Origin: an archaeon
Lineage (GTDB): Archaea; Iainarchaeota; Iainarchaeia; Iainarchaeales; Iainarchaeaceae
Assembly (NCBI GenBank): GCA_035289485.1
Contig: DATDXA010000024.1
Span: forward strand, 1-40,586
DNA length: 40,586 nt
Direction of reading: 5' to 3'
Both the position numbers and the translations under genes were made by a program. The number at the start of each line of letters is the position of its first letter. Position 1 is the stretch's first letter. The notes under the pieces were generated by a model. It did not search any database. It saw only the letters and a program-made list of their open reading frames with translations, and was not told the origin of the DNA. Shown here in pieces: positions 17,818 to 39,790 of the stretch.

Positions 17818-20800
17818 ATGGAAATAAATTACAACGCCTCTTTGCTTCTTATTCTTTCAATATTGCTCTTTGGCTGCGTGCAGGAGCAGGCCGGTGCGGA
17901 AAATGCGAATCTTTCGCCCACGCAGCCTGAAAACGTTGCCGGCTTTGCGACTTTAGAATCCGGGGATGAATCTGGAGGCACGGGAACCGGAGAGTATACG
18001 CAACCTGCGCCAAGTGGCACAGGAACAGGCACTGGTACAGGATCCGGAAGTGGAAGCGAGTCAGGCTCTGAAAGCGGATCTGGCAGCGGTTCGGGATTTG
18101 GTTATGGAGATGACGGCTCGGGAAGCGGTTCAGGTTATGATTATGGTTCAGGCTCGGGAAGCAGCTCGGGAGATGAAGAGGGTTCGGGAAGCGGAACTGG
18201 TACAGGCTCTGGACAAGATTCAGAGCTTGCAGCGGAAAACCTCGCGCTTTCGCAATCACTCAAATGCACACTTGATTCGGCTTCAGAAGACCGCGTCGGA
18301 ACATGGAACAATTTCACTCCCGGAATCGGCGGCGGCAACCCAACCCCCTACGACTGGAAATGGATTTGCTCAATTGAATTCACAAAAACGAAAACAATAA
18401 CATCAATCACGCTCAAGCACGAACTCTCAACCGAAAGCTGGTCAACATCAAACACACAGCTATACCCGATAGTAGTGTTCAAAGGCGACACGCAGCTAAA
18501 CAGAGCATATGGGCAGACACTCGGAACATACAACGCAGGAAAATATGACAACTTCAAGCTATTTGGCCAGATAGAGAGCGAAACATTCTCCGGAGCAATC
18601 GCAACATTCACATTCTCAGACGGCACAACCGCAAGCACAAAAATACCGCCATCGGACAAAAAACCACAGGCGCCATGCATTGATTCGGACAACGGAGCGG
18701 ACTACTTCACACAAGGAACAACAACAAAAGGCGCAACAACAAAAACAGATTACTGCATCAACACCGAAACACTCAATGAATACACCTGCAAGGACAACCA
18801 GGTAAAGGATGCCACATACAAATGCCCAAACGGATGCGACAAGGACACGGGGGCGTGCAAGCCGGACACAACAACGCCTGCAATAAATTTCTGTTCGTAT
18901 ATTAGCCCGGACACGGCACAGCCATTCCATGAGGGAGAGATATATTACGGGGTTACAGGCGGTTACGAATTTAATTCGGGCATTGCACTTGACCTGAAAA
19001 TAAAGAAAGTCGAAAACGCAGATAACCCAGACAAGGCAAAGGCAACATTTGAGCTTTATGAGCAGCAGTCCGGAAACCTGCTTGGCACTGCAACTGCAGG
19101 ATACTGTGATGACCTGCGCAATTTATTTATCAGTAAGAGCGGAAAGCCAATGCTATTTGGGCACTTCTTCATAAAGGCATTTGGCAAGGATGACAAAGGC
19201 AAAGTTGTCTCACTCACCGCTCTTGGAAGTGATGTGTGCATCGAATCACAATACGGAGGGTATCCATCGTCTTCAACGGTAATCGGCACAACCGGAATGC
19301 TTTATGGCCCGATTTATAAAAACTCAAATCCGAATCTTGCCGAAGTGTCGGTTACGGCAAGCTTCAATAACGGCCCATTCATTGATTCAAAAGAATTCCC
19401 CACTTCAAGCCCGAGAGCGCCCACTCTGAACTATGATTACATTTCAATCCCGGCCACGCTGCAGGGAGAAACCACGGCAACAATGAAAATAAAAGCCATG
19501 GAGAACGGGCAGGAAGTAAATGTAACTTTATACTGCATAGGGGATGCACAAAATGATGAGGCGGGGATTGTAAAAGTTACAGTGCTTGACAGCGATACAA
19601 AAGAAGCCATCCCAGGGGCATTGGCAAAACTTATGCTTGACAATACCCTGCTTCATTACAATTCTACTGGCGATGACGGAGTAGTATTCCTTGCAAGCAA
19701 AGCCAAGACTCCGCCTGTGCGCTATCTTATTTTAGTGAACGCGGTTGGTTATGAAAGCCAATCAAACGGCAGTGCATATATTTACTCTGGCGGAAAGACG
19801 GAAGTCACGTTCTACCTCATGAAATCGCAAACAACCGCACGCGACCAGCTGCCTGAGCCTGTCCTAAACAAGAATCCAGAAAACAGGGTTTCGATTAAGG
19901 CATTCTTCGAGTTCGAAGGGCCTTTCACCAAAATGTTCTACAATAACCAGATGAAGCAGATATTGGATACATATCCAAACGAAGTCAGCTTCTCGTTTAC
20001 CAATTATCCGCTCTCAATAATACATAGGTACGGCACCATAACAGCACTTGCAGGCGAATGTGCGGCTGCACAGGGCAAATTCTTCGAATTCGCAGACCAA
20101 TTATACGGCAATGATTATTCCACATTTACAAGGGATGTTTTGCTAAACATTGCAATCGACGCCAAACTTGACTACCAGGCATTTGGAGAATGCCTCGAAG
20201 AGCAAACATATTACCCCGAAGTCCTCGATGACATCAAGCAGGGAAATGCGATTGACCTCACAGGAACACCTACATTTAGTCTAAGCAACGGAAAAAGGGA
20301 GATAAGAATTGTGGGCGCGCAATCCTATGATGAATTCAAGAAAGCGATTGAGTTCCTGCTAAATGACACAGAGCCGCCCGTTGATGATGCCGTGATAAAG
20401 TCCGATTTTATAGTCAAGGAAATAGTAATCAAGGATGCCAGCAACGGATATGTGGACATCATCCGCAACCCGTTCACAGGAGACACTGGCACATATTATG
20501 TGAAAAATAAGATTGGCGGCATAAAGGGAACCGGAAAATATGACGGTCAGAGCATGACAATTGTAATACTCCAGTTGCTCTCAACGAATCCGGCATTCGG
20601 CACGCCGCTGCAGGCGACATTCGAGCTGCAGGACAAGGAAGGCAACGTTGTTGACTGGAAAACCGCTTCAATCGGCGATAACCTCAGATACATTTTCAAG
20701 TACAATGACCCGGCAGTTTCGGGAAGGCAGTACATCGACGAGGGCGAAGGAATATACTCCCTGATGGGAAGCGGCATCTACAAAGGCCAGAAGCTCAGCA

Positions 20801-23800
20801 TAAAATTCGCCACGCTAGAAGTCAAGCGCGCAGCGGCAGGCTCGCAGTACCCGTTCATTTACACAGGAACGTTCGAATTATACAACGAGAGCGGCAAATT
20901 GCTCGACACACAAACCGCAGGCAAAAGCGATGACCTCGGAAGCCTCTTCAAGGACCCGAACGGGCAGGATGCGCTCGCAACAAGCGTGAACATTGATTTG
21001 ATAGGGCTTTCATGGCCGAACTATACAGGATATATTGAGGTGACGGTGAAAGAGAAGGAGCCGCCAACCGAGACTCCGCAAACAATCACATTAGTTGACA
21101 GCAAAGGCTACCCGTACGACCCGATAAACTATGAAGGGATATACGACTATGTGGTAAATCTCACTTCAGACAGCAATGGCATGAAGAAAATAAAAATAGC
21201 AAATTCGAGGGAGAAGTGGAACAATTCAGTGTCCTCTAATGGCCCGCTGTACCCGACCAACTCAGGTCAGTCTCTCACAGGAGTTAACAAGTTAGAGTAT
21301 CTTAATGAAGGCTTCTCAATTACAAATCTTGATGGAAAAAATTTATATGAAGGCAAGAAACTTACAGTTAAATTGGCTCAAGTAACTCAAGGTGGCGGCA
21401 CTACAGGCACTGGATATCAGGGTATTTTTGAACTTTATGATTTGGACAATCTCATTGATACCCAAACGGTAACAAGCAGACTTGGATATAATTTTGCATA
21501 TGCGTTCAGAGACCAGAATGATAAAGAGGCGCTTGGCACAGATATCTTTGTAAACTTTATTGGAGTAAACAATGCAAACGGCGTACCATACGCCTCATTT
21601 TTCAGGGGAAAGCTTCCAGAAGCCAAACCCGCAGTATTTGGGAGCGCAATGCCTAGCGGAACAGCAGGAAAAGGCTTTGCAACAGCGGAATTCTTGGGAT
21701 TTACAGGAAAAGAAAAGATGACGACGGTTACAATCGGCAATGCAGTAACCGGCCTTGATAGCGCCGCAAAGGGCGGACTGAGCTTTAGGGGAGCAGACGA
21801 CGCAGAACATAACATCCCATTCGCGCTTGAACTTGACGATGCTGAAACAGGAAGCACATTCCTATTTGACGGCAAAACGATTTGGTACAGGATGAACTAT
21901 GGTGCAAGCTCCGCAACCGGGGCAAAACGTGACTTCAAATTCACTGTCAAAAACGGCGACTATGTCAATAACAGGATTTGGAACTTCACAGCACCGAACA
22001 TATTGAAAATTGGCGGCGTTGGAAATTCAATTGGGATACCAATTTCGGCAGGAAAGATTCTGACGGTTGATGGGGTGACCTATTTTTTCAACTCAGTCTC
22101 AATAGAACAAAATCTTGCATCGTCAAGCGCAACAGTTCTTGTGGATGGGGAAATAAATTTTAGGAAAGAAAACTCCACAGGAACGCCCATATACAACACA
22201 TTTGGTGATGCAGCAGATGAGACTTACGGGAAATTTTACTTCACCGACGGCGCAGTTTTTGACAACCAGACACCGCAGTCCTCAATTGTTATTGGAGGAG
22301 TGACTCAGCACACCAATAATGGCATAATTTTGCCGGATAAGGAGCTTGGCGGCTTTTCATTTTCTGCAATGGCTAGCCAGGAAATCAACAGGCTCTGGCT
22401 TCTTTTGGACGCCCCACAATTTTTGGATGGAAAAGCCCAAACTGTGGGAACAATTCAATCCGGGAAAACACTTTATTTCCAGGGCACTGATGTGCCAAAT
22501 TTCCAGGGCACTGAAAATGGATATGCAAACACAGAATATTACGTGCCACAAGACACGGATTTCAATTTCTCCGACACAAGGTATTCTAATAAGTCGGCAT
22601 ATTTTGTTGCGAACTTTTTCATCAACGGGGATACCGACAACAGGATTTATGTTTATATTGATACCAGAGATTCGGGAGTAATAGGCCCATTCACAAATTC
22701 TGACCTTGCCAGCTATACTTCAGACGCTAAATTTGTCAGCAGTTTCTCAAAAAATACAACTTTATGGAGCCTCAAATCCGGCAACGACCCAAGTTACCTC
22801 AAGGCAGCCTATGCAGACGATGGCACCAAAGCATCACTCCTTGAAAACGATGCGGGTGTGAAAATTAGCATGCCGCAGAACCGCGAAAATGTGCAGGCAG
22901 CACTCATTTTCTCCGATGGGTATTATATTTTATACAACCCATACCTCAATTCGACTTCAGGGTCAAGCGCGGTTGAAATAAATGAACTCGTGAATTCACA
23001 CTTGATTAATACGGATACGTTCCAGGAAAGGCTCGGAATCACGGCGGATGCAAAAATGGACACATCCTCTGACATTAAGGATTTGGTTGCCTATATTGAG
23101 GGCGGAGAATTCTATTATGAAACGGCAAAGAAAACCGGCGCAATCCAAACAGGCGACTGCATCCCATTCTTTGGCAATTACTACAACGTGAGCAAAATCA
23201 ATACATCGCAATCACCATACAGCATCACGCTTGAAACGAGCGCGCAATGTTCGGCATTGCCGCGGATTTTGGGAGCAGATATAGCGCCACAGGGCACGGT
23301 TGATGACCAAATGCGCGGAACCATTGCTGAGCCGTTGCAAAAACCGCAGATGGAAGCGGCACCTGTGCCAAAGCCATGGAACCCCAAGGTTACAACAAGC
23401 GGCACCGGAGCTAAAATAAGCGCGATAAGAATTCTCAACCCGAAATTTGAAATCAATGACAATGTGAAAATAAAGGCAACTGCGGCAAGCAAGGTTTACA
23501 AGGCATACCCATCGGCAACCTCGCCAGATGCCACATGGCTCTCCGGCGGGCCTTCGAGCATTTCCTACGGCACAATAACTGAAATGCCATACACGGACAA
23601 TGGCGGTAATATATGGTACAACGCCCAATTCAAGCAAAAGCTCTCAACGCGCGGAGAGGCGATACTTGCAAACGCATGGGTCACACAGAACATGCTTGTA
23701 AAACTCAATGCTGACGGGACAACAACCGATTTGCCGGATTCGTATACGAGCCATTTCAAGCTTGAGGCGCGCGGAACAGGATACTCAGCCGGCCAGTTCC

Positions 23801-25824
23801 TCATGGCAAAAGCCGGAGGCGCGCTCACACAGGATATTTACCTTTACGTGATGTCAACCGATGCGGACCGCGGAGTAAGCGCATTCGCAGCATACGCCTC
23901 CGAATCCGAAGTGCTCTCAAGCACTGCGGCGCCGAAAACAATAAACCTGCAGGCAGTTTCAAGGCCGCCGATATTTGAAAAGAAACAAACCGCACTCTTT
24001 GAGGATTTGGCGTGCTATGATTTTGACGAAGACGGGACATTAACATCGGATGAATGCGTAGAAGACATCGAGACATACCTGCAAAAAAACATCCGCGGGT
24101 GCTGGACACAGATAATGGATGTGGACCACGCCGATACGCCGGCACAAAGGTCGGAGTACGGGATAAGCATTACAGGGTGGTATGCAGGGCAGGACTGCAG
24201 CACGGTGGATGTTGCAATACCGTTCCAAAGGGCAAAAAAAATCGAAGTTGTGACAACTGCCCCCGATGAGACACCATTAAAATTCCCGTATAAAGAGGTG
24301 ACGGAATATGATGTAGAAGAGTTGACAGCGCCTCTCCCGCCGCTACCATATGACGGCGAAGGGGAATTTACAATAGTCGTTGACAATGTTTGGCAGGATA
24401 AATCCATTTACCCGGGATATCTTACCCCAGAAGGAAGTGAAATTACAAGGAAAGTTCTTGAAGAGAAAATGGCGTACGGCGGAAGCAATTACACCGGAAG
24501 GGTAGAAATCACTTCAGGCGCTGAAAATGGCAACTATAAATCAAATGACCAATGGCTTGCCGCAATAGGAATGCAGATAACTGATTCGCTCTCGGAGAAC
24601 CAAATTGGCACCCTTACAAACTGCGATGCCGCCGAAAATGTAGGAATATCCTGCGATTTCCCGGCGTACAAAAACAAGCTGGATGATTTGCTGAATGCAC
24701 AAGCTCAGATCGGATTCAACGGCGACATAGCGACGTATGATGATATGATGAACATTTACATCAGAAGACTTGTTCTTGAGAGCCACATAGACAATGTGTT
24801 GGCATTCGCTGGTTCAGTGTCAGGAAAAGGCGCACAGCTTGCCGGAGAGGAAACATTTGGCAATGAAATGATTGGAAAAGCCGATTTTGCGGGCGGGAAT
24901 CAGGAATTGCCAGTGGTTTCAAGTGTGTGGGAGACCGCAATAGATGGGGCTAAGTTGAATCCTGAAGACACTGCGAAATTAAATAACTTAAAGTTTCAGT
25001 ACGATGGCGCGGTTGCACGTACAGAACATCTGAATAGCAGGGTATTAGGACTTACAGAGACTTCCAGGGCTTTGACTGTCGAATACACTAATTTGATTAA
25101 AGACATTGCTACAAAGGAAGCGGAGATTGCACCGCTTGAATTAGCACAGAGGCAAGGCGTATTGGTAGGGCAACACAACATTGATAGGTTACAAAGTTTG
25201 CGTGAAGAATTAACCAATCTAAGATATAATCTTGGCGTAAAAGGAAACCAACTCGGAATCGCAAATTCTGCACTAGGCGAATTTAGTGAAAAGCTTAGAA
25301 TGTCCAAAGCAAAAATTGTAAACTTGAGAACCCAGTGGTTCGCCGAGCGGACAGCCGCATTAGCAAGAGCCACAAAAGGCGCAGGGGTGCTCAATTCGGT
25401 TAAGAAGGGATTGGTGAAAATCGGAAGGGGTTTGGGAAGATTGGCAGGGGTTGGAGTCGCTGTGATTGTTGTAAATGACGCACGCAATGTTGGCGCGGCA
25501 GAAGCGTCATGGAAACTTGTGAACGGATTGATACCGATGACGGTTGCGCTTGATGATGTGGGACCTGACAGCCCAAAGGTCAAAATACAGCTTGCCGAAA
25601 AGAGACAGCAATTGCATGATAATGTGGTGCCGTACCTTGACAAATTAGGCAAGGCATATTGGCGCGGGATGAAAGCCGGAGGCGACAAAGAGGAATATAA
25701 TAGGCTACTTTTGGAAGACCAGCAGGCAATTAATTCCGGGGACCCTAACGCCGCGCAAAACCAGAGACTTATTAATGAGGCTAATGGCATAATATCTGCC
25801 GCGGAAGCAACACAGGGGCAATGA
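17818..25824 (+). CDS. Giant multidomain surface lipoprotein A (2668 aa)
   Basis: Lipobox LFGC, Gly/Ser stalk, CxDSD Cys module, carboxypeptidase-regulatory-like Ig domain, DsbA-like domain without CxxC, four copies of an ATFELY domain, an S-layer-like insert, SH3-like domain, EF-hand, coiled coil and hydrophobic tip. TATA-like TTATATAT about 25 nt upstream suggests a leaderless transcript. Confidence 0.9.
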   Translation: MEINYNASLLLILSILLFGCVQEQAGAENANLSPTQPENVAGFATLESGDESGGTGTGEYTQPAPSGTGTGTGTGSGSGSESGSESGSGSGSGFGYGDDGSGSGSGYDYGSGSGSSSGDEEGSGSGTGTGSGQDSELAAENLALSQSLKCTLDSASEDRVGTWNNFTPGIGGGNPTPYDWKWICSIEFTKTKTITSITLKHELSTESWSTSNTQLYPIVVFKGDTQLNRAYGQTLGTYNAGKYDNFKLFGQIESETFSGAIATFTFSDGTTASTKIPPSDKKPQAPCIDSDNGADYFTQGTTTKGATTKTDYCINTETLNEYTCKDNQVKDATYKCPNGCDKDTGACKPDTTTPAINFCSYISPDTAQPFHEGEIYYGVTGGYEFNSGIALDLKIKKVENADNPDKAKATFELYEQQSGNLLGTATAGYCDDLRNLFISKSGKPMLFGHFFIKAFGKDDKGKVVSLTALGSDVCIESQYGGYPSSSTVIGTTGMLYGPIYKNSNPNLAEVSVTASFNNGPFIDSKEFPTSSPRAPTLNYDYISIPATLQGETTATMKIKAMENGQEVNVTLYCIGDAQNDEAGIVKVTVLDSDTKEAIPGALAKLMLDNTLLHYNSTGDDGVVFLASKAKTPPVRYLILVNAVGYESQSNGSAYIYSGGKTEVTFYLMKSQTTARDQLPEPVLNKNPENRVSIKAFFEFEGPFTKMFYNNQMKQILDTYPNEVSFSFTNYPLSIIHRYGTITALAGECAAAQGKFFEFADQLYGNDYSTFTRDVLLNIAIDAKLDYQAFGECLEEQTYYPEVLDDIKQGNAIDLTGTPTFSLSNGKREIRIVGAQSYDEFKKAIEFLLNDTEPPVDDAVIKSDFIVKEIVIKDASNGYVDIIRNPFTGDTGTYYVKNKIGGIKGTGKYDGQSMTIVILQLLSTNPAFGTPLQATFELQDKEGNVVDWKTASIGDNLRYIFKYNDPAVSGRQYIDEGEGIYSLMGSGIYKGQKLSIKFATLEVKRAAAGSQYPFIYTGTFELYNESGKLLDTQTAGKSDDLGSLFKDPNGQDALATSVNIDLIGLSWPNYTGYIEVTVKEKEPPTETPQTITLVDSKGYPYDPINYEGIYDYVVNLTSDSNGMKKIKIANSREKWNNSVSSNGPLYPTNSGQSLTGVNKLEYLNEGFSITNLDGKNLYEGKKLTVKLAQVTQGGGTTGTGYQGIFELYDLDNLIDTQTVTSRLGYNFAYAFRDQNDKEALGTDIFVNFIGVNNANGVPYASFFRGKLPEAKPAVFGSAMPSGTAGKGFATAEFLGFTGKEKMTTVTIGNAVTGLDSAAKGGLSFRGADDAEHNIPFALELDDAETGSTFLFDGKTIWYRMNYGASSATGAKRDFKFTVKNGDYVNNRIWNFTAPNILKIGGVGNSIGIPISAGKILTVDGVTYFFNSVSIEQNLASSSATVLVDGEINFRKENSTGTPIYNTFGDAADETYGKFYFTDGAVFDNQTPQSSIVIGGVTQHTNNGIILPDKELGGFSFSAMASQEINRLWLLLDAPQFLDGKAQTVGTIQSGKTLYFQGTDVPNFQGTENGYANTEYYVPQDTDFNFSDTRYSNKSAYFVANFFINGDTDNRIYVYIDTRDSGVIGPFTNSDLASYTSDAKFVSSFSKNTTLWSLKSGNDPSYLKAAYADDGTKASLLENDAGVKISMPQNRENVQAALIFSDGYYILYNPYLNSTSGSSAVEINELVNSHLINTDTFQERLGITADAKMDTSSDIKDLVAYIEGGEFYYETAKKTGAIQTGDCIPFFGNYYNVSKINTSQSPYSITLETSAQCSALPRILGADIAPQGTVDDQMRGTIAEPLQKPQMEAAPVPKPWNPKVTTSGTGAKISAIRILNPKFEINDNVKIKATAASKVYKAYPSATSPDATWLSGGPSSISYGTITEMPYTDNGGNIWYNAQFKQKLSTRGEAILANAWVTQNMLVKLNADGTTTDLPDSYTSHFKLEARGTGYSAGQFLMAKAGGALTQDIYLYVMSTDADRGVSAFAAYASESEVLSSTAAPKTINLQAVSRPPIFEKKQTALFEDLACYDFDEDGTLTSDECVEDIETYLQKNIRGCWTQIMDVDHADTPAQRSEYGISITGWYAGQDCSTVDVAIPFQRAKKIEVVTTAPDETPLKFPYKEVTEYDVEELTAPLPPLPYDGEGEFTIVVDNVWQDKSIYPGYLTPEGSEITRKVLEEKMAYGGSNYTGRVEITSGAENGNYKSNDQWLAAIGMQITDSLSENQIGTLTNCDAAENVGISCDFPAYKNKLDDLLNAQAQIGFNGDIATYDDMMNIYIRRLVLESHIDNVLAFAGSVSGKGAQLAGEETFGNEMIGKADFAGGNQELPVVSSVWETAIDGAKLNPEDTAKLNNLKFQYDGAVARTEHLNSRVLGLTETSRALTVEYTNLIKDIATKEAEIAPLELAQRQGVLVGQHNIDRLQSLREELTNLRYNLGVKGNQLGIANSALGEFSEKLRMSKAKIVNLRTQWFAERTAALARATKGAGVLNSVKKGLVKIGRGLGRLAGVGVAVIVVNDARNVGAAEASWKLVNGLIPMTVALDDVGPDSPKVKIQLAEKRQQLHDNVVPYLDKLGKAYWRGMKAGGDKEEYNRLLLEDQQAINSGDPNAAQNQRLINEANGIISAAEATQGQ
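17960..18215 (+). repeat. Gly/Ser/Thr low-complexity stalk (GS/GT dipeptide repeats); near-duplicate at about 32140-32385
   Basis: GTGTGTGTGSGSGSESGSESGSGSGSG... in both paralogs, with small indels. Confidence 0.85.
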
Positions 25825-26576
25825 TGCACATGAAAACAACCCAAAAAATCACAATAGCAATTTTGGCACTCGCCATTCTGTTCTCCGGCTGCGCGCAGCC
25901 AGGAACGGAGCAGAATCAGCAGCAGGGAAACATTGCCCAGCCTTCGGCTCCGCCGGTTACAACCAACATTGAATTTGCAAGCCACATAGACGCGGGCTTT
26001 CCTGAGCAGGATGTTTTTGTAAAAGAAATCGCAACATCAAGCCAGGTTTTCAGGCTTGAGAAAAGCGGCACTTTGCAGCAGGGAAACCTTGAGAAAATTG
26101 TTTTTGCCACGGCAACAGAAACCGCGCACAACCCTTTCAAAACAGGGGACAATGCGCTCGGGCCTTTTATTGCAGGGCAGAACCTTGGGTTTACATTAAA
26201 GCAGTGGCTTGAAGCCACCGGGAAAGGAACATACTCCGTTGCGGGAAGCGACGCAGTACTCAGGCTCTCATTCCAGAAGCTTGTTCCGAACGGAGTTTAC
26301 ACTGTTTTGTGCTCAAGAATTACAATGCCCCCGAATGCAAAAATAGTTGATGCCCCGTGCGGAAAGGCGGACGGCTCGGACAACGCTTTCCTTGCGGACA
26401 AGGACGGAAACGGAAAAATTGAAATTGCGCTCTCACCGCTGCAGCAGAGCACAAATGACACTAAAACTGCAATAGCGATTGCGTTCCACAGCGACGGCAA
26501 ATCATACGGAGCAAGCGCCGGGCCATATGGGCAGAAGACGCATGTGCAGCTTGTATATATGATGCCGACGCCATAA
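25821..26576 (+). CDS. Hypothetical lipoprotein, translationally coupled to giant protein A
   Basis: Lipobox FSGC, ATGA overlap with the upstream stop, globular region FPEQDVF...LVPNGVYT...HSDGKSYG...THVQL. Confidence 0.8.
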   Translation: MMHMKTTQKITIAILALAILFSGCAQPGTEQNQQQGNIAQPSAPPVTTNIEFASHIDAGFPEQDVFVKEIATSSQVFRLEKSGTLQQGNLEKIVFATATETAHNPFKTGDNALGPFIAGQNLGFTLKQWLEATGKGTYSVAGSDAVLRLSFQKLVPNGVYTVLCSRITMPPNAKIVDAPCGKADGSDNAFLADKDGNGKIEIALSPLQQSTNDTKTAIAIAFHSDGKSYGASAGPYGQKTHVQLVYMMPTP

Positions 26577-26966
26577 GAGCCGATAACAGCCAATCCACTC
26601 TCTGATAAAAGCCCAAGATTTGCGACAAAATGCGGCGAGCCTGATTCTGCCCGAAAAAGGCTTTTTATTAACACCGCCCAGCATTTTGTTCAGATGTCCA
26701 GTTTTTTGGACAACCGAAATAATTTTTTGGACACACGATTTTTATGATGCTGCAGGAGATTTTTGGGTCAAAATCTAAAATCGGGCTCTTGGCCAGGGTC
26801 ATAGATTCCAAAGAATCGTTTTTGACCAGGGAGCTTGCGAGGCTTAGATAGTCGTTATAAGTATAAAATTTGACAAGTCATTATACTTTATAACGATAAA
26901 CATTACTAATTAAGTTGTATTTTACAAAAGATAACTATATAAATAGCTCTAGCACAATTTAGTGGT

Positions 26967-28445: not shown

Positions 28446-28611
28446 ACTTTCCCAAAATTACACGGTGGCTTTTTACAGGCAATCGCCTATTCGGATATAT
28501 TCAACCAAAAGCATACAAAAGTATATCTTTGGTTAAATGCAGAAACTACGGGGGCTAACTCAGAATATGCCCCAAACCTAATACGGCCAAGCAAATGGCT
28601 GCTCTTTTGGA

Positions 28612-28649
28612 TTACCCTCTACATGCAAAAATTCAGTTGTAGAGGGTAA
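28612..28649. other. Perfect 12-bp inverted repeat with 14-nt spacer
   Basis: TTACCCTCTACA (28612-28623) / TGTAGAGGGTAA (28638-28649). Confidence 0.6.
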
Positions 28650-28702
28650 GTATTTTCCTGTGTGATTTTAAACCTTTTTCCCTCCTACTTCATTGATAGA
28701 AA

Positions 28703-29704: not shown

Positions 29705-29736
29705 AAAAAAGTAAACGAAGTGTGCTGATAAATTTT

Positions 29737-30669
29737 TTACTTTTCCTCTTTTGAAATTTCGCTGGCTTCTTCCTTTTCAGCGCCAAGTATTATTGATTCA
29801 AGATTCACCTTCAAATCCTTGTTGTCCGGCAGGATATAATCCGCAAGCCCGAGACGGTATGAAATTTTCTGCGCAGTTGTGGGGCTTGATGGCCGAAGAA
29901 GAATTGTAACAAGCATCTTTGCAATGTCGATATCGGCGTAGCTATCGGTTATAATCACGGATTTTTTCACATCGAAGTTTTTCCCCTGCGCTGCAAGGCC
30001 TTCTTTAATCGCAGTGAGCTTTGTGCGCACGGCAATTCCCTCAAATTCAAAGTCCTTTGTGCCGACCATGCTTTTTATTCCGGTAATCGCCCCCGCTTCA
30101 TTGAACCCAAGCTCGGTTCCTATGATGCAGTCAAACTCGAAACCATATTTTAGTTTCAGGTGCTCATTTAGCATATTTCCAAAATCTTTTGAGGAAAGGG
30201 TTGCGAGCACTATTGTTTTGCCGCTTGCCTTGATATCTATTAGCGCATTTATCAGCTGCCTGCGAAGTTGGGGCTTTATGCGGTCAAGGACATGGAAGAG
30301 GTGCGGGCGGGAAATTTTTCGCCCCATTAGAAACTTATTCCCTTCAACAATTGCCTTCTCGATGCTGTATTCTCCGGAGGCGATTTTAGAAATTACTGAA
30401 TTGTAAATTTCCTCCCCGGATGCCTTGCCGGATTCTGTCTTTTCAGGGTATGCAAGCGCGAGAGCCTCTAGGTTTGCATCGGTTTTGTAGAGGGTCCCGT
30501 CCATATCTACGATTATTGTGTCAAATTCGGCGTGGCGAAACCTTCGCAGCGCGCTTCGCTTTATCTTAAAGGTAAGGGAATTCTTGACAACAAGGCCAAG
30601 AAGCTTTGCGGCACCGAGCTTGGATTTGATGTCCCGCAGGCGCGGAACCTTAAGGCGTGGCATTTTCAT
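29737..30669 (-). CDS. HAD-superfamily hydrolase (phosphoserine-phosphatase-like)
   Basis: Motif I IVDMDGTL, motif II LATLS, motif III K, motif IV ITDSYAD, with a basic N-terminal extension. Confidence 0.82.
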   Translation of the reverse strand: MKMPRLKVPRLRDIKSKLGAAKLLGLVVKNSLTFKIKRSALRRFRHAEFDTIIVDMDGTLYKTDANLEALALAYPEKTESGKASGEEIYNSVISKIASGEYSIEKAIVEGNKFLMGRKISRPHLFHVLDRIKPQLRRQLINALIDIKASGKTIVLATLSSKDFGNMLNEHLKLKYGFEFDCIIGTELGFNEAGAITGIKSMVGTKDFEFEGIAVRTKLTAIKEGLAAQGKNFDVKKSVIITDSYADIDIAKMLVTILLRPSSPTTAQKISYRLGLADYILPDNKDLKVNLESIILGAEKEEASEISKEEK

Positions 30670-30783
30670 GGGAAATCAGATAGAATATTGGGTTAAGCAC
30701 TTTAAATTAGTGCCGCAAAAGCCCTTGAAAAGGGAATTAACAGCCGCGCTTAAGTTTAAATGGATTAATTCCAAGGTATTAGC

Positions 30784-31965
30784 ATGCCAAATGGTGAGGA
30801 GATTTTTGATGTTGTGGTTGTGGGAGCTGGGCCTGCGGGCGGCTCTGCTGCTTTGCATTGCGCGCGCAAAGGGCTCAAAACACTGATTATTGAAGAGCAT
30901 GAAAAAATAGGCGAACCTGTGCACTGCGGTGAGTGCCTAAGCCTTTATGCCGTGCAAAACACAGGCATTGTTCCGCCTGAAAGTGTGATTTCTGAGCATG
31001 TGAAAGGGGTGCGCATTGTCTTTCCCGATGGAACGGCTTCGTGCCTAAATGAAGCGGGGTTTGTTTTGGAAAAGCATCTTTTCGAGCAGTGGCTTTCTGC
31101 AGAAGCTGTGAAGGCGGGTTCGGAGCTGCGGCTTGGAATGAGGCTTGAGGATTTGAAAAGGGAAAACGGCATTTGGAATCTTAAAACGTCAAAAGGAGAA
31201 CTCAAAACAAAAATACTAATTGACGCTTCTGGAGTATCATCAGTTGTTTCGCGCAAATTAAACCTTAATGAAAGGTTCAAGACCGTGACAGGAATACAGT
31301 ACGAGATGCGCGATGTCCCGCGCGATGGGTATCTTGACTTTTATATCTGGCCAGAGCTTGCGCCGCACGGGTATTTGTGGATGATTCCAAAAAAGGACAC
31401 GCACGCAAATGTTGGCCTTGTAACAAATGAAACCAATAAGGCAAAGCAGTACACCGATGAGTTTGTAAAAAGGCTTGGATGGGAAAAAAATGCGAAGGTG
31501 AAAACTTTCGGCGGGCTTATTCCGGCTTCGGGGCCGCTAAAAAATACTTCGGGTGAAGGGCTGATGCTTATCGGGGATGCCGCAGGGTTCACTTCGCCGC
31601 TTTTTGAAGGCGGCTCTCATCTCGGGCTCAAAAGCGGGGAGATGGCGGCGATTGTTGCCGCAAAAGCGGTTGCGGAAAACAATTTTTCTGCGGAATTTTT
31701 CTCCCAGTATGATGCCATGTGGAAAGCGGAATTCCCTGAGTATGATAAAATAATCAAGGGCAAGGACGCGCTCTATGCATTTACGGATGAGGAAATTAGC
31801 TTTATTGGAAGGAGCTTCCCGAGGGATTTTGACAAATTTGATTCTGTGCAGAAAGTCATTTTCGGGCTCAGAGTCCTCTCCTCAAAGCCGCATCTTTTGA
31901 AAAAAGGGTTCCTGCCAGCAATGAAGGCATTTGAATATTCGCAGGCGAAGGCGTATGGGTGGTAA
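30784..31965 (+). CDS. Geranylgeranyl reductase family FAD oxidoreductase (digeranylgeranylglycerophospholipid reductase-like)
   Basis: VVVVGAGPAG, PVHCGE, PHGYLWMIPK (PxxYxWxFP-like), ANVG, LIGDAAG..SPLFEGG. Confidence 0.9.
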   Translation: MPNGEEIFDVVVVGAGPAGGSAALHCARKGLKTLIIEEHEKIGEPVHCGECLSLYAVQNTGIVPPESVISEHVKGVRIVFPDGTASCLNEAGFVLEKHLFEQWLSAEAVKAGSELRLGMRLEDLKRENGIWNLKTSKGELKTKILIDASGVSSVVSRKLNLNERFKTVTGIQYEMRDVPRDGYLDFYIWPELAPHGYLWMIPKKDTHANVGLVTNETNKAKQYTDEFVKRLGWEKNAKVKTFGGLIPASGPLKNTSGEGLMLIGDAAGFTSPLFEGGSHLGLKSGEMAAIVAAKAVAENNFSAEFFSQYDAMWKAEFPEYDKIIKGKDALYAFTDEEISFIGRSFPRDFDKFDSVQKVIFGLRVLSSKPHLLKKGFLPAMKAFEYSQAKAYGW

Positions 31966-31997
31966 TCAATAAATACTTGCATGCACTCCTTTAGTTC

Positions 31998-34900
31998 ATG
32001 GAATTTCGCCCTTTTGTGATATTTTCGTTTATTGCCATAATAGCCATTTTTGGCTGTGTGCAGGAACAGGGAACCAATGGAAGCGCGAATCTTTCGCCCA
32101 CGCAGCCTGAAAATGTTGCCGGCTTTGCGACTTTAGAATCCGGGGAAGAATCTGGAGGCACCGGAACCGGAGAGTATACGCAACCTGCGCCAAATGGCAC
32201 AGGAACAGGCACTGGAAGTGGAAGCGAGTTAGGCTCTGAAAGCGGATCTGGCAGCGGTTCGGGATCTGGTTATGGAGATGAAGGCTCGGGAAGCGGTTCA
32301 GGCTATGATTATGGCTCAGGTTCTGGCAGCGGCTCGGGAGATGAAGAGGATTCGGGAAGCGGAACTGGCACAGGCAGCGGCCCATCACCAATACCTAATG
32401 ACGCTTCAATCAAATGCACGCTTGACTCGGCTTCAGAAGACCGCGCAGGAACATGGAACAAATTCGAACCCGGAATCGGCGGCAGCAACCCAACACCATA
32501 CGACTGGAAATGGATTTGCTCAATTGAATTCACAAAAACCAAAACCATTAACTCAATCGAAATCAAACACGAACTCGCAACAGAAACATGGTCAACCCAA
32601 AACCCACAATTATACCCAATAGTAGCATTCAAAGGCGACACGAAGCTAAACACCGCATACGCTCAGACACTCGGAACATACAATGCAGGAAAATACGACA
32701 ACTTCAAGCTATTTGGCCAGATAGAAAGCGAAACATTCACCGGAGCAATCGCAACATTCACATTCTCAGACGGCACAAGCGCAAGCACAAAAATAGCGCC
32801 ATCGGACAAGAAGCCACAGGCGGCATGCAGCGACTCTGACGGAGCGGACTACTTCACAAAAGGGACAACGACAAAAGGCGCAACAACAAAAACAGATTAC
32901 TGCATCAACACCGAAACACTCAATGAATACACCTGCAAGGACAATCAGGTAAAGGATGCCACATACAAATGCCCGAACGGATGCGACAAGGATACGGGGG
33001 CGTGCAAGCCGGACACAACAACGCCTGCAATAAATTTCTGCTCTTATTTGAACAATAATACTTCATCACCATACCGCGAGGATGAAATTTTCAATTACGC
33101 TGCAGGCGACAACGAATTTTCAGGCAAACAGATTGACATTAAAATAAAGAAGATTGAAAATGTAGACTCCCAAAAACCCAAAGCGACTTTCGAACTTTAT
33201 GAAGCGGGAACCAAAAACCTGATTGCAACTGCCGCGGCAAGCCACTGCGACGATTTGCGCAATTTATTCATCGGCAAAGACGGAAAGCCGATACTGCTCA
33301 ATCACTATTTTATTAAGGGATTTGGCAAGGACGACAAGGGCAAATTCGTTTCACTGGCATGGCTGCAAAATGATGTGTGTGTGGAATCAGAGAACGGGGG
33401 CTACACACAATATGGAACTGTTATCGGAACAACAGGAATGCTGTTTGGGACGATTTACAAAAGCTCCCAAATTACGGATTTATCAATCTCGGGCAGCTTC
33501 AATAACGGGTCATTCATAGATTCGAAAGAGTTCCCTTCGACAAGTCCTGGGACACCGACACTTGTTATTGATTTGGCTTCATTCCAGACGCCACTGCAGG
33601 GAGAAACCACAGTGACCTTGAAAGTAAAAGGCAGATACAACGGCCAGGAAATTAATTCGACTTATTACTGCATAGGCGATGCAAAGAAGGATGATATTGG
33701 ATTTATTTTAGTAAGAGTCCTCGACGGCGAAACGAAAGAGCCGATTGCAGGGGCTTCACTCTCGCTTGGGGGCCCTGCTTCATCATATTATCTGGGATAT
33801 TATTCGACACAGGAGGACGGCGTTGGATTCCTAGCAGACAGGGCTAAATCCCCGCCTGCACCGTATCAGGTTAATGCCAGTGCAGCAGGATATGAAAAGG
33901 GCTGGAAATCCGATGTGTATATCTATTCAGGCGGCAAAACAGAAGTGACAATAGAGCTGAAGAAATCCGAAGTGCCTGCCAATAATCAGCTCTCGGAGCC
34001 AATACTAAACAAGAATCCAGAAAACAGGGTTTCGATTAAGGCGTTCTTCGAGTTCGAAGGGCCTTTCACCAAAATGTTCTACAATAACCAGATGAAGCAG
34101 ATACTGGATACATATCCAAACGAAGTCAGCTTCTCATTTACCAATTATCCGCTCTCAATAATCCATAGATATGGCACCATAACAGCACTTGCAGGCGAAT
34201 GTGCGGCTGCACAGGGCAAATTCTTCGAATTCGCAGACCAATTATACGGCAATGATTATTCCACATTTACAAGGGATGTTTTGCTAAACATTGCATACGA
34301 CGCCAAGCTTGACTCTACTGCATTTGCAGAATGCCTCGAAGAGCAAACATATTACCCCGAAGTCCTCGATGACATCAAGCAGGGAAACGCGCTTGACATT
34401 ACAGGAACGCCTACATTTATTTTAAGCAACGGCCAAAGGGAGATAAGAATTGTAGGCGCGCAATCCTATGATGAATTCAAGAAAGCGATTGAATTCCTGC
34501 TAAATGACACAGAGCCGCCAGTTGATGACGCCGTGATAAAATCAGACTTCATAGTGAAAGACATTGTAATCAAGGATGCTGGCAACGGATATGTGGACAT
34601 CATCCGCAACCCGTTCACAGGGGACACAGGCACATATTATGTGAAAAACAAGATTGGCGGCATAAAGGGAACCGGCAAATACGACGGACAGAGCATGACA
34701 ATTGCAATACTCCAGCTGCTCTCAACAAATCCGGCATTCGGCACGCCGCTGCAGGCGACATTCGAGTTATATGACAAAGATGGACGCATTGTAAGCACAA
34801 AAACCGCCTCAATCGGCGACAACCTAAGGTACTTATTCAAAGCTGAGCCCGAATCAGGAAAGGCGCATTATTATGAAGGCGAAACGATTTCTTCGGTGAT

Positions 34901-37826
34901 TGGAGCCGGACTTTACAAGGGCCAGAAGCTTGGCATAAAATTCGCCACGCTTGAAATCAAGCGCGCGGCGGCAGGCTCGCAGTACCCGTTCATTTACACA
35001 GGGACGTTCGAGCTCTACAACGAGAGCGGAAAACTCCTTGACACGCAAACCGCAGGCAAAAGCGATGACCTCGGAAACCTCTTCAAGGACCCGAACGGGC
35101 AGAACGCACTTGGTTCAAGCGTGAACATTGATTTGATCGGGCTCTCATGGCCGAACTATACCGGATATATTGAGGTGACGGTGAAAAAGCCGGAAGCGCC
35201 AACAACTCAGCCAAAACAGGTACGCATAGCGTCATCGCCAGAGCCGATGGAATGGAACCCAAAAGTTTCAACAAGCGGCACGGGAGCGAAACTTGGCGTG
35301 ATACAGGAACTTAATGAACAGTTTGAACTTGGGGTCAATGTGAAAATAGATGCGGCGGCTCCCAAAAAAATTTACAAAGAATTTCCAAGCTTCACTTCGC
35401 CTGATGCCACATGGCTCTCCGGCGGACCTTCAAGCATTTCCTACGGAACAATAACCGAAATGCCATTTAGGGATAGTGCAGGCAACATATGGTATAAAGT
35501 CCAATTCAAACAAAAGCTCTCAACGCGCGGAGAGGCGATACTTGCAAACGCATGGGTCACACAAGAAATGCTTCTAAAGCTCAACGCCGACTGGACAACA
35601 ACAAAAATCCCTAAAAGTTACACAAGCCACTTCAAGCTTGAGGCGCGCGGAACAGGATATAAGCAGGGCGACTTCCTTTTGGCAAAAGCAGGAGGCGCAC
35701 TCACGCAGGACGTTTATCTTTATGTGATGTCAACCGACAGCAAAGGCGGAGTAAGCGCATTCACAGCATACGCATCAGAATCCAAAGTGCTCTCAAACAC
35801 TGCCGCACCCAAAGCAATAAACCTGCAGGCAGTTTCAAAACCCGCAATATTTGAAAAGAAAAAGACCGCACTCTTTGAGGATTTGGCGTGCTATGATTTT
35901 GATGGCGATGGGACATTAACTCTGGATGAATGTGCAGAAGACATCGAGACATACCTGCAAAAAAACATCCGCGGATGCTGGACACAGATAGATGATTCAT
36001 CACATGATGACACGCCCGCTGAAGAAAATGATTTTGCAATCAACACCGAAATATGGTACGCCGGGCAGGACTGCGAAAAAATGGACATAACGATACCGTT
36101 TGAAAGGGCAAAAGAAATCAAAGTGAGGACCTATTTCGATGACGGAGCGGGAACAGTAGTGCCATATTACTTTCCGGTAACGGTGGTGGACTTGGGCGCC
36201 GAAAGCCTTGATACAGTGCCTCTGCCGTCGCTTGGGTGGGATGGGGAAGGGCACATAACGGTGGTGGTTGCCGACATCTGGCAGCCGGAAGGCAAGTTTA
36301 TCGGGGAAATAGCAGACATAGGTTTCCTTGATGACGATGGATGGCTCGGGCCAGGCGGAAGGGCAGGACTATTCACTGGCAACGGATACAACCGCACAGG
36401 AACAATAGATGTTGCCGCATCATCAGAAGACGATTCATACAAATCGCAGGACTTATGGGTTAGCGCAATAGGAACACCCATACACAATAAGGCGTCCACT
36501 TATCAGATGGCAACATGTGTGAAAAAAGACACTCCGCCGCCAACAGGAGAAGGGACATATCTCACAGGGATTCCATGCACGATATTCACCTTTGAAGACC
36601 CCGCAACAAAAGAAAAAGTCATAGCGACAGAGGAAGGCGTGAAATTGTTCATGACACAGTGCCAGTACGCACTCGGAGGCGCATGCGGGCTACCGGCATA
36701 CCGCAGCAAGCTAGAGGACATACTAAATGCACCCGCACCAATCGGATACAACGGTGACATAGCGACATACCAGGATATGATTGATTATATGACCTATGAA
36801 GCGCTTGAGAAGCACGCGGACCATGTGCTGGGGTTTACGCCGGAAGATACGGCACTTACAAAAGACCGCACGGAAAATGGCGAAGCCGCAGAAAATGCCT
36901 TTTTCGCGGGGGGCGAGGAACAATCGTCGGCTGGCGGTAAGTTGGAAGCGGAATTCAATTACGCGAAAATGGACCCTTCAGGTTTCCCGAAGGTGGATAA
37001 TGCGGCGCAGATTCATGGCATAGTTGCGAGGTACGAAAAGGCGCTCTCTGACAGGGTCATTAGGCTCACCGAGATATATTCCGGCTTGAAAACGGAGCTT
37101 GCTGAAATTGCAAGGCAGATAGATGAAAAAAGAACACGCCTCTCGGAGCTCAGTGCAAGGCAGACGGTGCCCATTTTACCTTCAGAAATCGATGAACTTA
37201 AGAGGCTGCCTGCGGAAATAGCCGAGCTTGAAAACCGCCAAAGATTGGTCGCGAACAACTTCGCCATTACAAAGCAATCTCTTGCCGAGCACAAGACAAA
37301 GCTGACAAAAACGCAGAGTGGGTTGATTTCTTCTGAACTTAAGTGGAGAAGCGAACTGGCGGCTGCCACGGCAAAAGCCGAAAAATCCGCCGGGATGCTA
37401 AGTTCAGTTAGGAAAGGCATAGTTAGTATTGGAAGGGGCCTTAAAAGGATGGCTGGACTCGGTGTTGCGGTTATTATTTTGAATGATGTGCGCAACAGTG
37501 GCGCCTCGGAAGCGGCATGGAATTTTGTTAACGGGATGGTGCCGGCCACAGTGGTGCTGGATAATGCCGGGCCGGACAGCATGGAAGTCGTGAAAAAACT
37601 TGCGGAAAAGAGGCAGCAATTGCACGACAATGTTGTCGGACCGCTGCAAGCATTGGGGAATGCGTATAATCGTGCAATGGGGATAGACAAAGCATCTGAG
37701 TATATGAGTAAACTTAGGGAAGACCAGAGGGCAGTTGAAGAGGGAGACCCGAACGCAGCCCAAAGCCAAAAATTAGTCAGCGAAGCAAATGGGCTGGCGG
37801 CATCGTTAGAAAATCAGAATCAATGA
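31998..37826 (+). CDS. Giant multidomain surface lipoprotein B (1942 aa), paralog of 17818..25824
   Basis: Lipobox IFGC. Colinear with protein A, with long near-identical DNA blocks, but it lacks the 775-aa central insert. Confidence 0.9.
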   Translation: MEFRPFVIFSFIAIIAIFGCVQEQGTNGSANLSPTQPENVAGFATLESGEESGGTGTGEYTQPAPNGTGTGTGSGSELGSESGSGSGSGSGYGDEGSGSGSGYDYGSGSGSGSGDEEDSGSGTGTGSGPSPIPNDASIKCTLDSASEDRAGTWNKFEPGIGGSNPTPYDWKWICSIEFTKTKTINSIEIKHELATETWSTQNPQLYPIVAFKGDTKLNTAYAQTLGTYNAGKYDNFKLFGQIESETFTGAIATFTFSDGTSASTKIAPSDKKPQAACSDSDGADYFTKGTTTKGATTKTDYCINTETLNEYTCKDNQVKDATYKCPNGCDKDTGACKPDTTTPAINFCSYLNNNTSSPYREDEIFNYAAGDNEFSGKQIDIKIKKIENVDSQKPKATFELYEAGTKNLIATAAASHCDDLRNLFIGKDGKPILLNHYFIKGFGKDDKGKFVSLAWLQNDVCVESENGGYTQYGTVIGTTGMLFGTIYKSSQITDLSISGSFNNGSFIDSKEFPSTSPGTPTLVIDLASFQTPLQGETTVTLKVKGRYNGQEINSTYYCIGDAKKDDIGFILVRVLDGETKEPIAGASLSLGGPASSYYLGYYSTQEDGVGFLADRAKSPPAPYQVNASAAGYEKGWKSDVYIYSGGKTEVTIELKKSEVPANNQLSEPILNKNPENRVSIKAFFEFEGPFTKMFYNNQMKQILDTYPNEVSFSFTNYPLSIIHRYGTITALAGECAAAQGKFFEFADQLYGNDYSTFTRDVLLNIAYDAKLDSTAFAECLEEQTYYPEVLDDIKQGNALDITGTPTFILSNGQREIRIVGAQSYDEFKKAIEFLLNDTEPPVDDAVIKSDFIVKDIVIKDAGNGYVDIIRNPFTGDTGTYYVKNKIGGIKGTGKYDGQSMTIAILQLLSTNPAFGTPLQATFELYDKDGRIVSTKTASIGDNLRYLFKAEPESGKAHYYEGETISSVIGAGLYKGQKLGIKFATLEIKRAAAGSQYPFIYTGTFELYNESGKLLDTQTAGKSDDLGNLFKDPNGQNALGSSVNIDLIGLSWPNYTGYIEVTVKKPEAPTTQPKQVRIASSPEPMEWNPKVSTSGTGAKLGVIQELNEQFELGVNVKIDAAAPKKIYKEFPSFTSPDATWLSGGPSSISYGTITEMPFRDSAGNIWYKVQFKQKLSTRGEAILANAWVTQEMLLKLNADWTTTKIPKSYTSHFKLEARGTGYKQGDFLLAKAGGALTQDVYLYVMSTDSKGGVSAFTAYASESKVLSNTAAPKAINLQAVSKPAIFEKKKTALFEDLACYDFDGDGTLTLDECAEDIETYLQKNIRGCWTQIDDSSHDDTPAEENDFAINTEIWYAGQDCEKMDITIPFERAKEIKVRTYFDDGAGTVVPYYFPVTVVDLGAESLDTVPLPSLGWDGEGHITVVVADIWQPEGKFIGEIADIGFLDDDGWLGPGGRAGLFTGNGYNRTGTIDVAASSEDDSYKSQDLWVSAIGTPIHNKASTYQMATCVKKDTPPPTGEGTYLTGIPCTIFTFEDPATKEKVIATEEGVKLFMTQCQYALGGACGLPAYRSKLEDILNAPAPIGYNGDIATYQDMIDYMTYEALEKHADHVLGFTPEDTALTKDRTENGEAAENAFFAGGEEQSSAGGKLEAEFNYAKMDPSGFPKVDNAAQIHGIVARYEKALSDRVIRLTEIYSGLKTELAEIARQIDEKRTRLSELSARQTVPILPSEIDELKRLPAEIAELENRQRLVANNFAITKQSLAEHKTKLTKTQSGLISSELKWRSELAAATAKAEKSAGMLSSVRKGIVSIGRGLKRMAGLGVAVIILNDVRNSGASEAAWNFVNGMVPATVVLDNAGPDSMEVVKKLAEKRQQLHDNVVGPLQALGNAYNRAMGIDKASEYMSKLREDQRAVEEGDPNAAQSQKLVSEANGLAASLENQNQ

Positions 37827-37890
37827 AATTTGCATCCAAATCGCCCCCAAAAAGTGATTATTAAATAGGTTCCCTTCGTAAGGTTAGAGT

Positions 37891-38604: not shown

Positions 38605-38636
38605 TCAACTATTTAGTTCAAGATAATTAACCTAAT

Positions 38637-39269: not shown

Positions 39270-39317
39270 GTAAGAAAGGGAGATTGGAAAGAATAAAAAG
39301 CGGTGCGCGGCGTTTAA

Positions 39318-39719: not shown

Positions 39720-39736
39720 TACATGTTCCTCCATCT

Positions 39737-39790
39737 CTTTCTTTTTCGTCAACGTTTTTCTTTCTCTTGGAAAGAGAAAGAAAAAGGTTG
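39737..39790. repeat. Hairpin-plus-tail dispersed repeat, copy 4 (ribC-ribH intergenic)
   Basis: CTTTCTTTTTCGT-CAACG-TTTTTCTTTCTCTT-GGA-AAGAGAAAGAAAAA-GGTTG. Perfect 14-bp stem with a 3-nt loop. Confidence 0.8.

Follow-up and report, generated by a model that had tools for sequence, protein, structure and literature searches.

Gene conversion between surface-protein paralogs is textbook biology of bacterial pathogens. In the babA/babB-type genes of Helicobacter pylori, outer-membrane adhesin paralogs at separate loci undergo short-tract, non-reciprocal recombination, and the resulting chimeric alleles vary from strain to strain. Here, we describe a pair of paralogous genes, A and B, on a 40,586-bp stretch of archaeal DNA that we refer to as the window and that makes up the entire contig C24 of its genome (1.16 Mb in 64 contigs, estimated to be 90% complete). 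The two genes encode predicted giant surface lipoproteins of 2668 and 1942 amino acids (aa). Like babA and babB, they are paralogous genes for (predicted) surface proteins at separate loci in one genome, with unrelated 5′ flanks and promoters, and they show an abrupt alternation of low and saturated synonymous divergence as well as alternative states of the same tracts (contig-based and unphased). Unlike babA and babB, they are archaeal and would encode lipobox-anchored multidomain giants, not beta-barrel proteins, and the converted parts are the shared scaffold. Among the titles and abstract openings listed in a literature search, none described gene conversion between giant surface-protein paralogs of archaea or of the DPANN group. 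The pair adds an archaeal case to the known instances of conversion between paralogous genes and of module exchange in surface proteins.

Giants of another kind are described from nanohaloarchaea. The SPEARE-type proteins SVXNc_0300 and BNXNv_0298 are encoded by single genes, measure 8,880 to 9,409 aa, and contain a VirB4/TraG-like ATPase domain; they come from DPANN genomes of ~1 Mb, are secreted and membrane-tethered, carry Ig-like arrays, are genome-specific, and have been proposed to act in host contact (PMC10266531). A and B resemble them in very large size, Ig-like modules, genome specificity, and a DPANN genome of ~1 Mb. They differ in being shorter, in forming a recombining pair, in the sequence similarity, of which none was found, and in the ATPase families, which were absent from Pfam and NCBIfam scans of A, B, and their C-terminal parts. 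Because the ATPase domain is missing from A and B, the comparison is drawn by analogy alone. The S-layer proteins of DPANN archaea provide a further point of reference: They are reported to be orthologous to those of class I methanogens and are PF05124, MSTP-like beta-sandwich proteins (bioRxiv 10.1101/2024.05.28.596244). A and B, in contrast, lack PF05124 (searched at E up to 0.1 for the whole proteins and up to 1 for their parts), are not colinear with S-layer proteins over the whole ~1,000 to 1,100 aa, and have a lipobox in place of the S-layer signal peptide MKGFNVKKLAAIATGA. No full-length match to a characterized S-layer family was obtained.

Synonymous mosaic between A and B

The two open reading frames (ORFs) are co-oriented and lie 6.2 kb apart, as a preliminary description of the window had stated, with exactly 6,173 nt between them. 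BLASTP aligned A147-1095 with B137-1080 at 77% identity and A1839-2668 with B1068-1942 at 50%, leaving 753 residues of A (A1088-1122 and A1131-1848) without a counterpart in B. At the DNA level, the similarity sets in exactly at the lipobox (17869 in A and 32049 in B) and fades at 25628 and 37636, respectively, while the flanks of the two genes, including short A/T-rich promoter-like regions, are unrelated. The longest exact run that is shared between the genes measures 123 nt. The signal peptides had been reported as different, and their h-regions indeed share only 24% of their residues. Three blocks that had been called near-identical to their counterparts in B (18700-18890, 19865-20395, and 20780-21050) proved similar rather than near-identical, at 91.2, 94.4, and 90.1% identity, whereas those called diverged (18900-19860 and 24120-24960) stand at 64.4 and 52.1%.

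Synonymous divergence (dS) is strongly nonuniform along the pair. In sliding windows of 40 codons, it swings from ~0 to saturation, with five blocks of 0.25 to 0.77 kb at a dS of 0.14 to 0.50 (blocks I to V; Table 1) and saturation in the rest, including the signal peptide, the block that holds the FELY-1 and Ig modules described below, and the C-terminal 580 codons. Bootstrapping gave upper limits of at most 0.93 for the low-dS blocks and lower limits of 1.29 and 1.56 for the two largest high-dS blocks. The analysis was then confined to the 1,252 codons at which A and B specify an identical residue, in windows of 30 codons and with 10,000 permutations. The fraction of identical codons per window ranged from 0.33 to 0.97. 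Its variance across windows was 0.032 (permutation mean, 0.0068; maximum, 0.0138), and the longest run of identical codons was 43 (permutation maximum, 41), values that were reached in 0 of the 10,000 permutations. Protein constraint alone is thereby excluded as the source of the mosaic, since codon identity is heterogeneous even where the encoded residue is the same.

The ends of the genes provide information on the age of the duplication. Both the signal peptide and the last 145 codons (61% aa identity at a dS of 2.19) are saturated in dS yet still homologous, which argues that the duplication of A and B is old. Given an old duplication, the low-dS blocks are best read as later overwriting and, because they differ in dS (0.14 to 0.50), as the outcome of several exchange events. 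We consider it probable that A and B are old paralogs encoding giant, species-restricted surface lipoproteins with an adhesin or spacer role, in which blocks have been overwritten by conversion and modules have been moved. The five blocks have been overwritten at different times by short-tract, non-reciprocal recombination that appears to be continuing, and whole modules have also been transferred from gene to gene. Patchwise gene conversion, as suggested in the preliminary description, is thus borne out by the heterogeneous dS and by block states that differ between public sequencing runs (see below). None of the three refutations named in that description applies: dS is not uniform, both architectures recur in independent assemblies, and a full-length match to a characterized S-layer family is absent. 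The accompanying argument that a simple crossover would delete the intervening genes is sound in its geometry, as A and B form direct repeats, and otherwise stays conjectural.

Modules of the two proteins and the S-layer-like core of A

Both proteins start with a hydrophobic segment (hydropathy maxima in 19-residue windows of 1.96 for A residues 1-28 and 2.30 for B residues 1-26) that ends in a lipobox-like motif, LFGC in A and IFGC in B. An arrangement in which xxGC follows a hydrophobic stretch occurs in 24 ORFs across the genome, with A and B as its largest members and a Phe at position −2 in 3 of the 24. Together, these features suggest a surface location of A and B. An acidic Gly/Ser/Thr spacer of about 100 residues follows the lipobox. 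The next region, B132-350, was modeled by AlphaFold 2 (AF2) with a predicted local distance difference test score (pLDDT) of 92 as a beta-sandwich plus a small module with six Cys. Fold searches with this model yielded a generic beta-sandwich only and named no family (Foldseek best E 7e-4, TM 0.32; VIA best Z 8.3). The Cys module recurs in large ORFs, often in tandem, and the sandwich-plus-Cys query matched 17 of 150 other genomes of the order.

The DsbA/Thioredoxin_4 fold was the only one above threshold in Pfam scans of A and B (PF01323 and PF13462; scores of 41.6 and 47.8 bits at a cut-off of 23.2, and of 40.4 and 44.6 bits at 25.6), and the domain also matched DsbA chains of the PDB (4pwp and 7uno; E 7e-6). 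Unlike in DsbA/Thioredoxin_4 proteins, GPFT stands in both copies where CPxC is expected, the domain is embedded in a giant protein, and it forms the best-conserved and most recently converted block; free-standing paralogs on contig C43 of the genome have CPAC and CPFC. As both active-site cysteines are lost, the domain is predicted to be a redox-dead thioredoxin fold. The Thr-Pro (cis-Pro) loop is retained, as is an internal pair of Cys, and a role in binding or in structure is more probable for this domain than one as an oxidoreductase. FELY modules, four in A and three in B, owe their nickname solely to a match to the NCBIfam entry FxLYD_dom below its cut-off (E 0.0097), and all of them resemble one module of a 1074-aa protein encoded on contig C62.

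In the preliminary description, these parts had been listed in the same order in both proteins. Its lipobox (as a lipobox-like motif), Gly/Ser stalk, beta domain, Cys module, and dead DsbA domain hold, and four further items do so in part. The Ig domain corresponds to a sub-threshold match to CarboxypepD_reg. For the EF-hand, the canonical loop D-x-D-x-D-G-x-[IL]-x-x-x-E is present (DFDGDGTLTLDE at B1300-1311 and DFDEDGTLTSDE at A2068-2079), while PF00036 scored 12.9 bits against a cut-off of 25.4; it is a single loop, and the model there is too poor to judge helices. The coiled coil appears as three long helices at B1669-1807 that are predicted with low confidence in AF2 secondary structure. 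The hydrophobic tip is a conserved Gly/Ala/Val stretch of 11 to 14 residues (A2539-2552) that is weakly hydrophobic (maxima of 1.41 in A and <1.3 in B) and, being too short and too low in hydropathy, is not a transmembrane helix.

The 1074-aa protein on contig C62 provides a putative link of A to the S-layer. It matches Pfam S_layer_C (PF05124; E 9.2e-12) in a split fashion over residues 36-1069, and in relatives, all 14 ORFs that had a start codon (16 fetched) share its near-identical N-terminus, of which the consensus is the signal peptide given above, at lengths of 1,010 to 1,120 aa. On the basis of this match, the near-invariant N-terminus, and the consistent length, we take it as a putative S-layer protein. 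A968-1692 matches its residues 260-929 (E 1e-26 and 3.6e-59), of which residues 263-929 at E 3.6e-59, about 670 residues of S-layer core, fall to the insert that is specific to A. B matches residues 257-363 through a single FELY module, and FELY-3 (block IV) is homologous to residues 260-363. In A, the S-layer match thus takes up roughly a quarter of the protein, and in B, 6%.

Matches to the insert of A were obtained in 62 of the 150 other genomes from the order, and the ORFs that contain them mostly measure 1,000 to 1,100 aa; a word-based protein search with the insert in the near length class returned just the pair's own alleles. The core of the insert shares 47% of its residues with the S-layer protein of genome G002, 42% with that of G012, and 33% with that of its own genome. 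In a maximum-likelihood tree of 19 cores, A's core is placed, on a long branch (1.05), inside the clade of G011, G017, G012, and G002 (support 98/98), separate from the clade of the C62 protein (100/97). This placement indicates that the insert derives from an S-layer gene of another lineage than the genome's own. The core of a 2504-aa giant in G003 groups with the S-layer proteins of its own genus. S-layer cores have thus entered giant genes at least twice independently. The giants of G003, G049, and G016 contain the same module types in other orders. Module swapping, the second process named in the preliminary description, is accordingly well founded. As a separate observation, the S-layer signal peptide is near-invariant across relatives, yet the cores split into deep clades, at least two in number, that disagree with the genus boundaries.

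The C-terminal half of both proteins is an orphan. Among 1.84 billion representatives, B1080-1942 found one distant relative, P0007 (30% identity over B1187-1503), besides alleles of A and B, and among the 150 other genomes of the order, a single borderline match was returned. Pfam, NCBIfam, and Atlas searches of this half named no family (the best Atlas score, 0.75 for B1500-1942, is a lead at most), and the word-based search in the near length class again gave just the pair's own alleles; in the "shorter" length class, B130-1080 returned one unrelated disulfide-isomerase-like protein and no further allele fragments. Neither a full-length ortholog of A or B nor a relative of B350-665 was found in 40 related genomes, six of which, for the full-length search, belong to the same genus. 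A pattern scan of 185,579 species genomes, which detects close relatives alone and possibly left out the window's own genome, gave no match.

What the proteins do can be proposed from this architecture. The lipobox Cys would anchor the N-terminus in the cell's own membrane through lipidation, and the spacer of ~100 residues would cross the gap beneath the S-layer. A chain of Ig-like sandwich, six-Cys module, FELY modules shared with the S-layer protein, and CarboxypepD_reg-like Ig would come next, followed by the redox-dead DsbA fold, with A alone adding ~670 residues of S-layer core. Both proteins would end in the orphan part of ~860 residues, with its beta region and Ca-type loop, long helices, and short hydrophobic stretch. 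A and B may thus act as adhesins or spacers that are anchored in the envelope and extend into or through the S-layer. The preliminary description went further, to host attachment or penetration and to two variants with different specificity, for which we found no evidence in support. The conversion that we observed homogenizes shared scaffold modules and creates no diversity in a part that binds; any difference in specificity would rather be borne by the diverged blocks.

Alternatively, instead of adhesins for a host or substrate, A and B could be structural pillars or tethers, which would connect the S-layer to the membrane or determine its spacing. We regard this as possible, if doubtful. 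The predicted N-terminal lipid anchor and long spacer would suit such a role, as would the FELY modules common with the putative S-layer protein, the central core of that protein in A, and a glycosyltransferase-like (GT-C-like) membrane protein and a second lipoprotein that flank A. A structural part would, however, be expected to be conserved, yet not even the six genomes of the same genus have a full-length ortholog, the C-terminal half is an orphan, and A lacks the PF05124 part, so that insertion into the lattice is not implied. A bolder version of the adhesin role, in which the pair would serve as a contact device of a host-dependent DPANN cell, strikes us as distinctly unlikely. Here, the protein would be held by its lipid anchor, A would be threaded into or through the cell's own S-layer, and the orphan end would insert in a partner membrane in the manner of an internal fusion or insertion peptide, with conversion keeping the shaft uniform while two heads are retained.

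Alleles in public data and alternative origins of the mosaic

Protein databases hold further alleles of both genes. P0004 is a full-length A with one difference, where it carries the B-type residue. P0003 is a 1198-aa fragment of B that extends from B's own signal peptide past the junction without the insert, and P0005 and P0006 represent the C-terminus of B. P0003 departs from A, from B, or from both at 284 sites, of which 262 are B-type and 11 A-type, and 10 of these 11 follow each other at B767-862 with no B-type site among them. A metagenome scan gave contig L071 as the sole match; it is identical to the window over 21998-40586 and hence adds no independent allele.

The gene is present in eight public runs from four studies (with at least half of its words in five of them), none of which is on record as RNA. 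We aligned the contigs of four runs (X1 to X4), short de Bruijn contigs, to window positions 31500-38300, where cover of B is absent in X4 at 32862-33088 and in X3 at 33089-33315. The B-specific stretches 33011-34034 and 35945-38001, and with them the B version of the diverged block, were recovered at 100% identity in X1 and X2 at a single-copy depth of ~11. Within the part of B that is homologous to A, all 30 contig letters differing from the window (four runs) are A's letters; 29 match A directly, and the last does so after applying a reported 1-base insertion and deletion. A 383-nt contig at 34005-34387 is A-type at all 15 A/B differences, with no B-type contig there in X1, X2, and X4, and its depth is about double that of single-copy sequence (22.5 versus 11.2 to 12 in X1, 25.3 versus 10.3 to 11.3 in X2, and 8.7 versus 4.4 in X4). 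Had both versions been present, the mean word depth would be expected at ~1.4 times single-copy, as estimated from the spacing of the differences, not at 2 times. The A-type is thus the sole version at twofold depth at 34005-34387 in three of the four runs and at 32871-33040 in two of the three that cover it (X1 and X2). Run X3, in contrast, has the window's B letters at 34104-34327. These data imply at least two states of the same blocks in nature: In some populations, two blocks are identical in both genes, and the exchange between the copies looks recent.

Two chimeric contigs of X3 were excluded as evidence, as they are low-depth de Bruijn contigs. One joins A-type letters at 32945-34043 to B-type letters at 34104-34327, and the other is B-type at 34455-34766 and then A-type up to 35076. 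A further X3 contig shows six differences from the window within 61 nt (37911-37971), at the start of an undecaprenyl-diphosphate-synthase-like gene, which points to a second strain in that run.

Several points weigh against our reading of A and B as old lipoprotein paralogs with converted blocks. Two sequences and no ortholog do not reveal in which direction or how often exchange took place, and they leave an import of diverged blocks from other strains inseparable from a conversion of similar ones. The contigs break at repeats, so that converted blocks are not phased with unique flanks; the argument from twofold depth assumes even coverage; and P0003 and the two chimeric X3 contigs (depth about 5 to 9) could be assembly chimeras. 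The window's B letters occur at 32945-32993 in none of three covering runs and at 34104-34327 in one of four, and since they are missing from most runs, the window's copy may be a minor strain or a strain consensus. The AF2 model of B1080-1942, from a three-row alignment, is unusable (mean pLDDT 36.5); its secondary structure alone is quoted here. Lastly, the Phe at −2 falls outside the archaeal lipobox motif, [L/V/I][A/S/T/V/I][G/A/S]C, published in a source that also reports AliA in DPANN (PMC12462473).

The mosaic would have a different meaning if diverged segments had been imported from other strains or species into a recent duplicate, making the divergent blocks the derived ones and requiring no conversion between A and B. 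Foreign segments do enter these genes, as the closer affinity of A's S-layer core to other species attests, and the giants of relatives shuffle the same modules. Nevertheless, we judge such an origin unlikely: Not one of the diverged blocks in the shared parts yielded a donor (B350-665 in 40 genomes and the C-terminal half in 150), the gene ends, saturated but clearly homologous, fit an old duplication, the low-dS blocks are of several distinct ages, and the two blocks that are fully identical between the loci in three runs amount to homogenization between copies.

We consider it very improbable that the genes or their mosaic are artefacts of an assembly in which a repeat, or several strains, became collapsed or fused. 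In favor of such an artefact, the contigs of each of the four runs end at stretches common to both genes, most runs lack the window's B letters in two blocks, P0003 and the X3 contigs are chimeric by comparison with the window, and L071 duplicates it. Yet in X1 and X2, the B-specific stretches have single and the shared blocks double depth, as two real copies predict, and each gene sits in unrelated flanks with a different promoter region. Moreover, a collapse would give identical blocks, not differences of 6 to 10%, and independent assemblies reproduce both architectures, yielding full-length A, B beyond the insert-less junction, and the C-terminus of B. Differential protein constraint on an evenly old duplicate, finally, merits next to no credence: The low-dS blocks are also the best conserved at the protein level (aa identity of 0.84 to 0.98), but codon identity varies among same-residue codons, and the C-terminal block exemplifies constraint without conversion.

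Genomic surroundings and significance

The gene content of the window is archaeal, with a geranylgeranyl reductase (GGR), a KaiC-type ATPase, and DUF2666. Table 1 lists the features of the pair. The 251-aa lipobox neighbor of A has no equivalent downstream of B. Directly upstream of A, a 668-aa polytopic membrane protein (15732-17738, +) has no Pfam or NCBIfam match; in structural alignment, its Atlas model reaches a TM of 0.85 with membrane proteins of the PTPS_related (PF10131)/YfhO type, which are GT-C-type glycosyltransferases, and it could glycosylate the Ser/Thr-rich spacer of A. Between A and B lie the GGR gene, which has three distant paralogs elsewhere in the genome, and an AAA_14/DUF4143 ATPase gene (26967-28445, +), possibly a later insertion, in a low-GC stretch (GC 0.37 to 0.40 at 27001-29000).

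Table 1. Features of the gene pair and the related putative S-layer protein. Positions refer to the window unless a contig is named.
Feature	Position (A or as named)	Position in B	Strand	Remarks
ORF A, giant lipobox protein, 2668 aa	17818-25824		+	identical protein on 2 contigs; second allele P0004, 1 residue different
ORF B, paralog of A, 1942 aa		31998-37826	+	on 3 contigs; alleles P0003, P0005, P0006
Signal peptide with lipobox-like motif	17818-17877	31998-32057	+	LFGC (Cys20) in A; IFGC in B
Low-dS block I: lipobox, N-terminus, Gly/Ser/Thr spacer	17869-18117	32049-32285	+	dS 0.14
Low-dS block II: beta-sandwich and 6-Cys module	18268-18867	32418-33014	+	dS 0.38 (sandwich), 0.15 (Cys module); overlaps the A-type stretch 32871-33040 of X1 and X2
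Diverged block: FELY-1, beta region, CarboxypepD_reg-like Ig	18868-19842	33015-33983	+	dS 1.86; aa identity 0.57
Low-dS block III: predicted redox-dead DsbA-like domain (A686-845) and FELY-2	19843-20607	33984-34748	+	dS 0.28; holds the tract 34005-34387 (A-type in X1, X2, and X4) and the A-type patch of P0003 (B767-862)
Inter-FELY region				dS 1.50
Low-dS block IV: FELY-3	20749-21042	34884-35177	+	dS 0.49
A-specific 762-aa insert: small domain, FELY-4, S-layer-like core	21079-23364		+	48 nt in B instead
Low-dS block V: orphan beta region, Ca-binding-type loop between Cys pairs	23533-24087	35409-35963	+	dS 0.50
Ca-binding-type loop	24019-24054	35895-35930	+	
Diverged orphan C-terminal part: variable region, long helices, hydrophobic stretch, terminal helices	24088-25821	35964-37823	+	dS saturated
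Variable and helical region				dS 2.37
Short Gly/Ala/Val hydrophobic stretch	25432-25473	37440-37481	+	
Probable operon partner of A: 251-aa lipobox protein (LFSGC)	25821-26576		+	start overlaps A stop codon (ATGA)
Putative S-layer protein, 1074 aa	contig C62:36404-39628		-	PF05124 split match

Elsewhere in the window, a co-oriented gene run (5240-12132, +) resembles a second operon for surface proteins, equipped with an ATPase of its own. It comprises two membrane-anchored proteins (5240-7219 and 7232-8986) with many Cys-rich "C..C..DC" modules, a KaiC-family ATPase (8987-9901), a Big_7/MG2-like membrane-anchored protein (9915-11108), and a lipobox protein (11200-12132). The contig starts with an IS240-type DDE transposase (162-1070, +), and Tandem Repeats Finder gave nothing of note. 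Four further ORFs of 2,259 to 2,605 aa are found on contigs C3 (1417-23931; three in a row) and C29 (59147-66208) of the genome, none of which was matched when the genome was searched with B.

What is new here is the archaeal setting and the capture of S-layer pieces. The pair indicates that the large, lineage-specific surface proteins of these tiny archaea draw on a common stock of modules, parts of S-layer proteins among them, and that their genes continue to exchange sequence within the time frame of natural populations. The locus is a target for long-read metagenomics, and its two natural variants, one of which has the S-layer core while the other lacks it, can serve to study how DPANN cells build and use their envelope.

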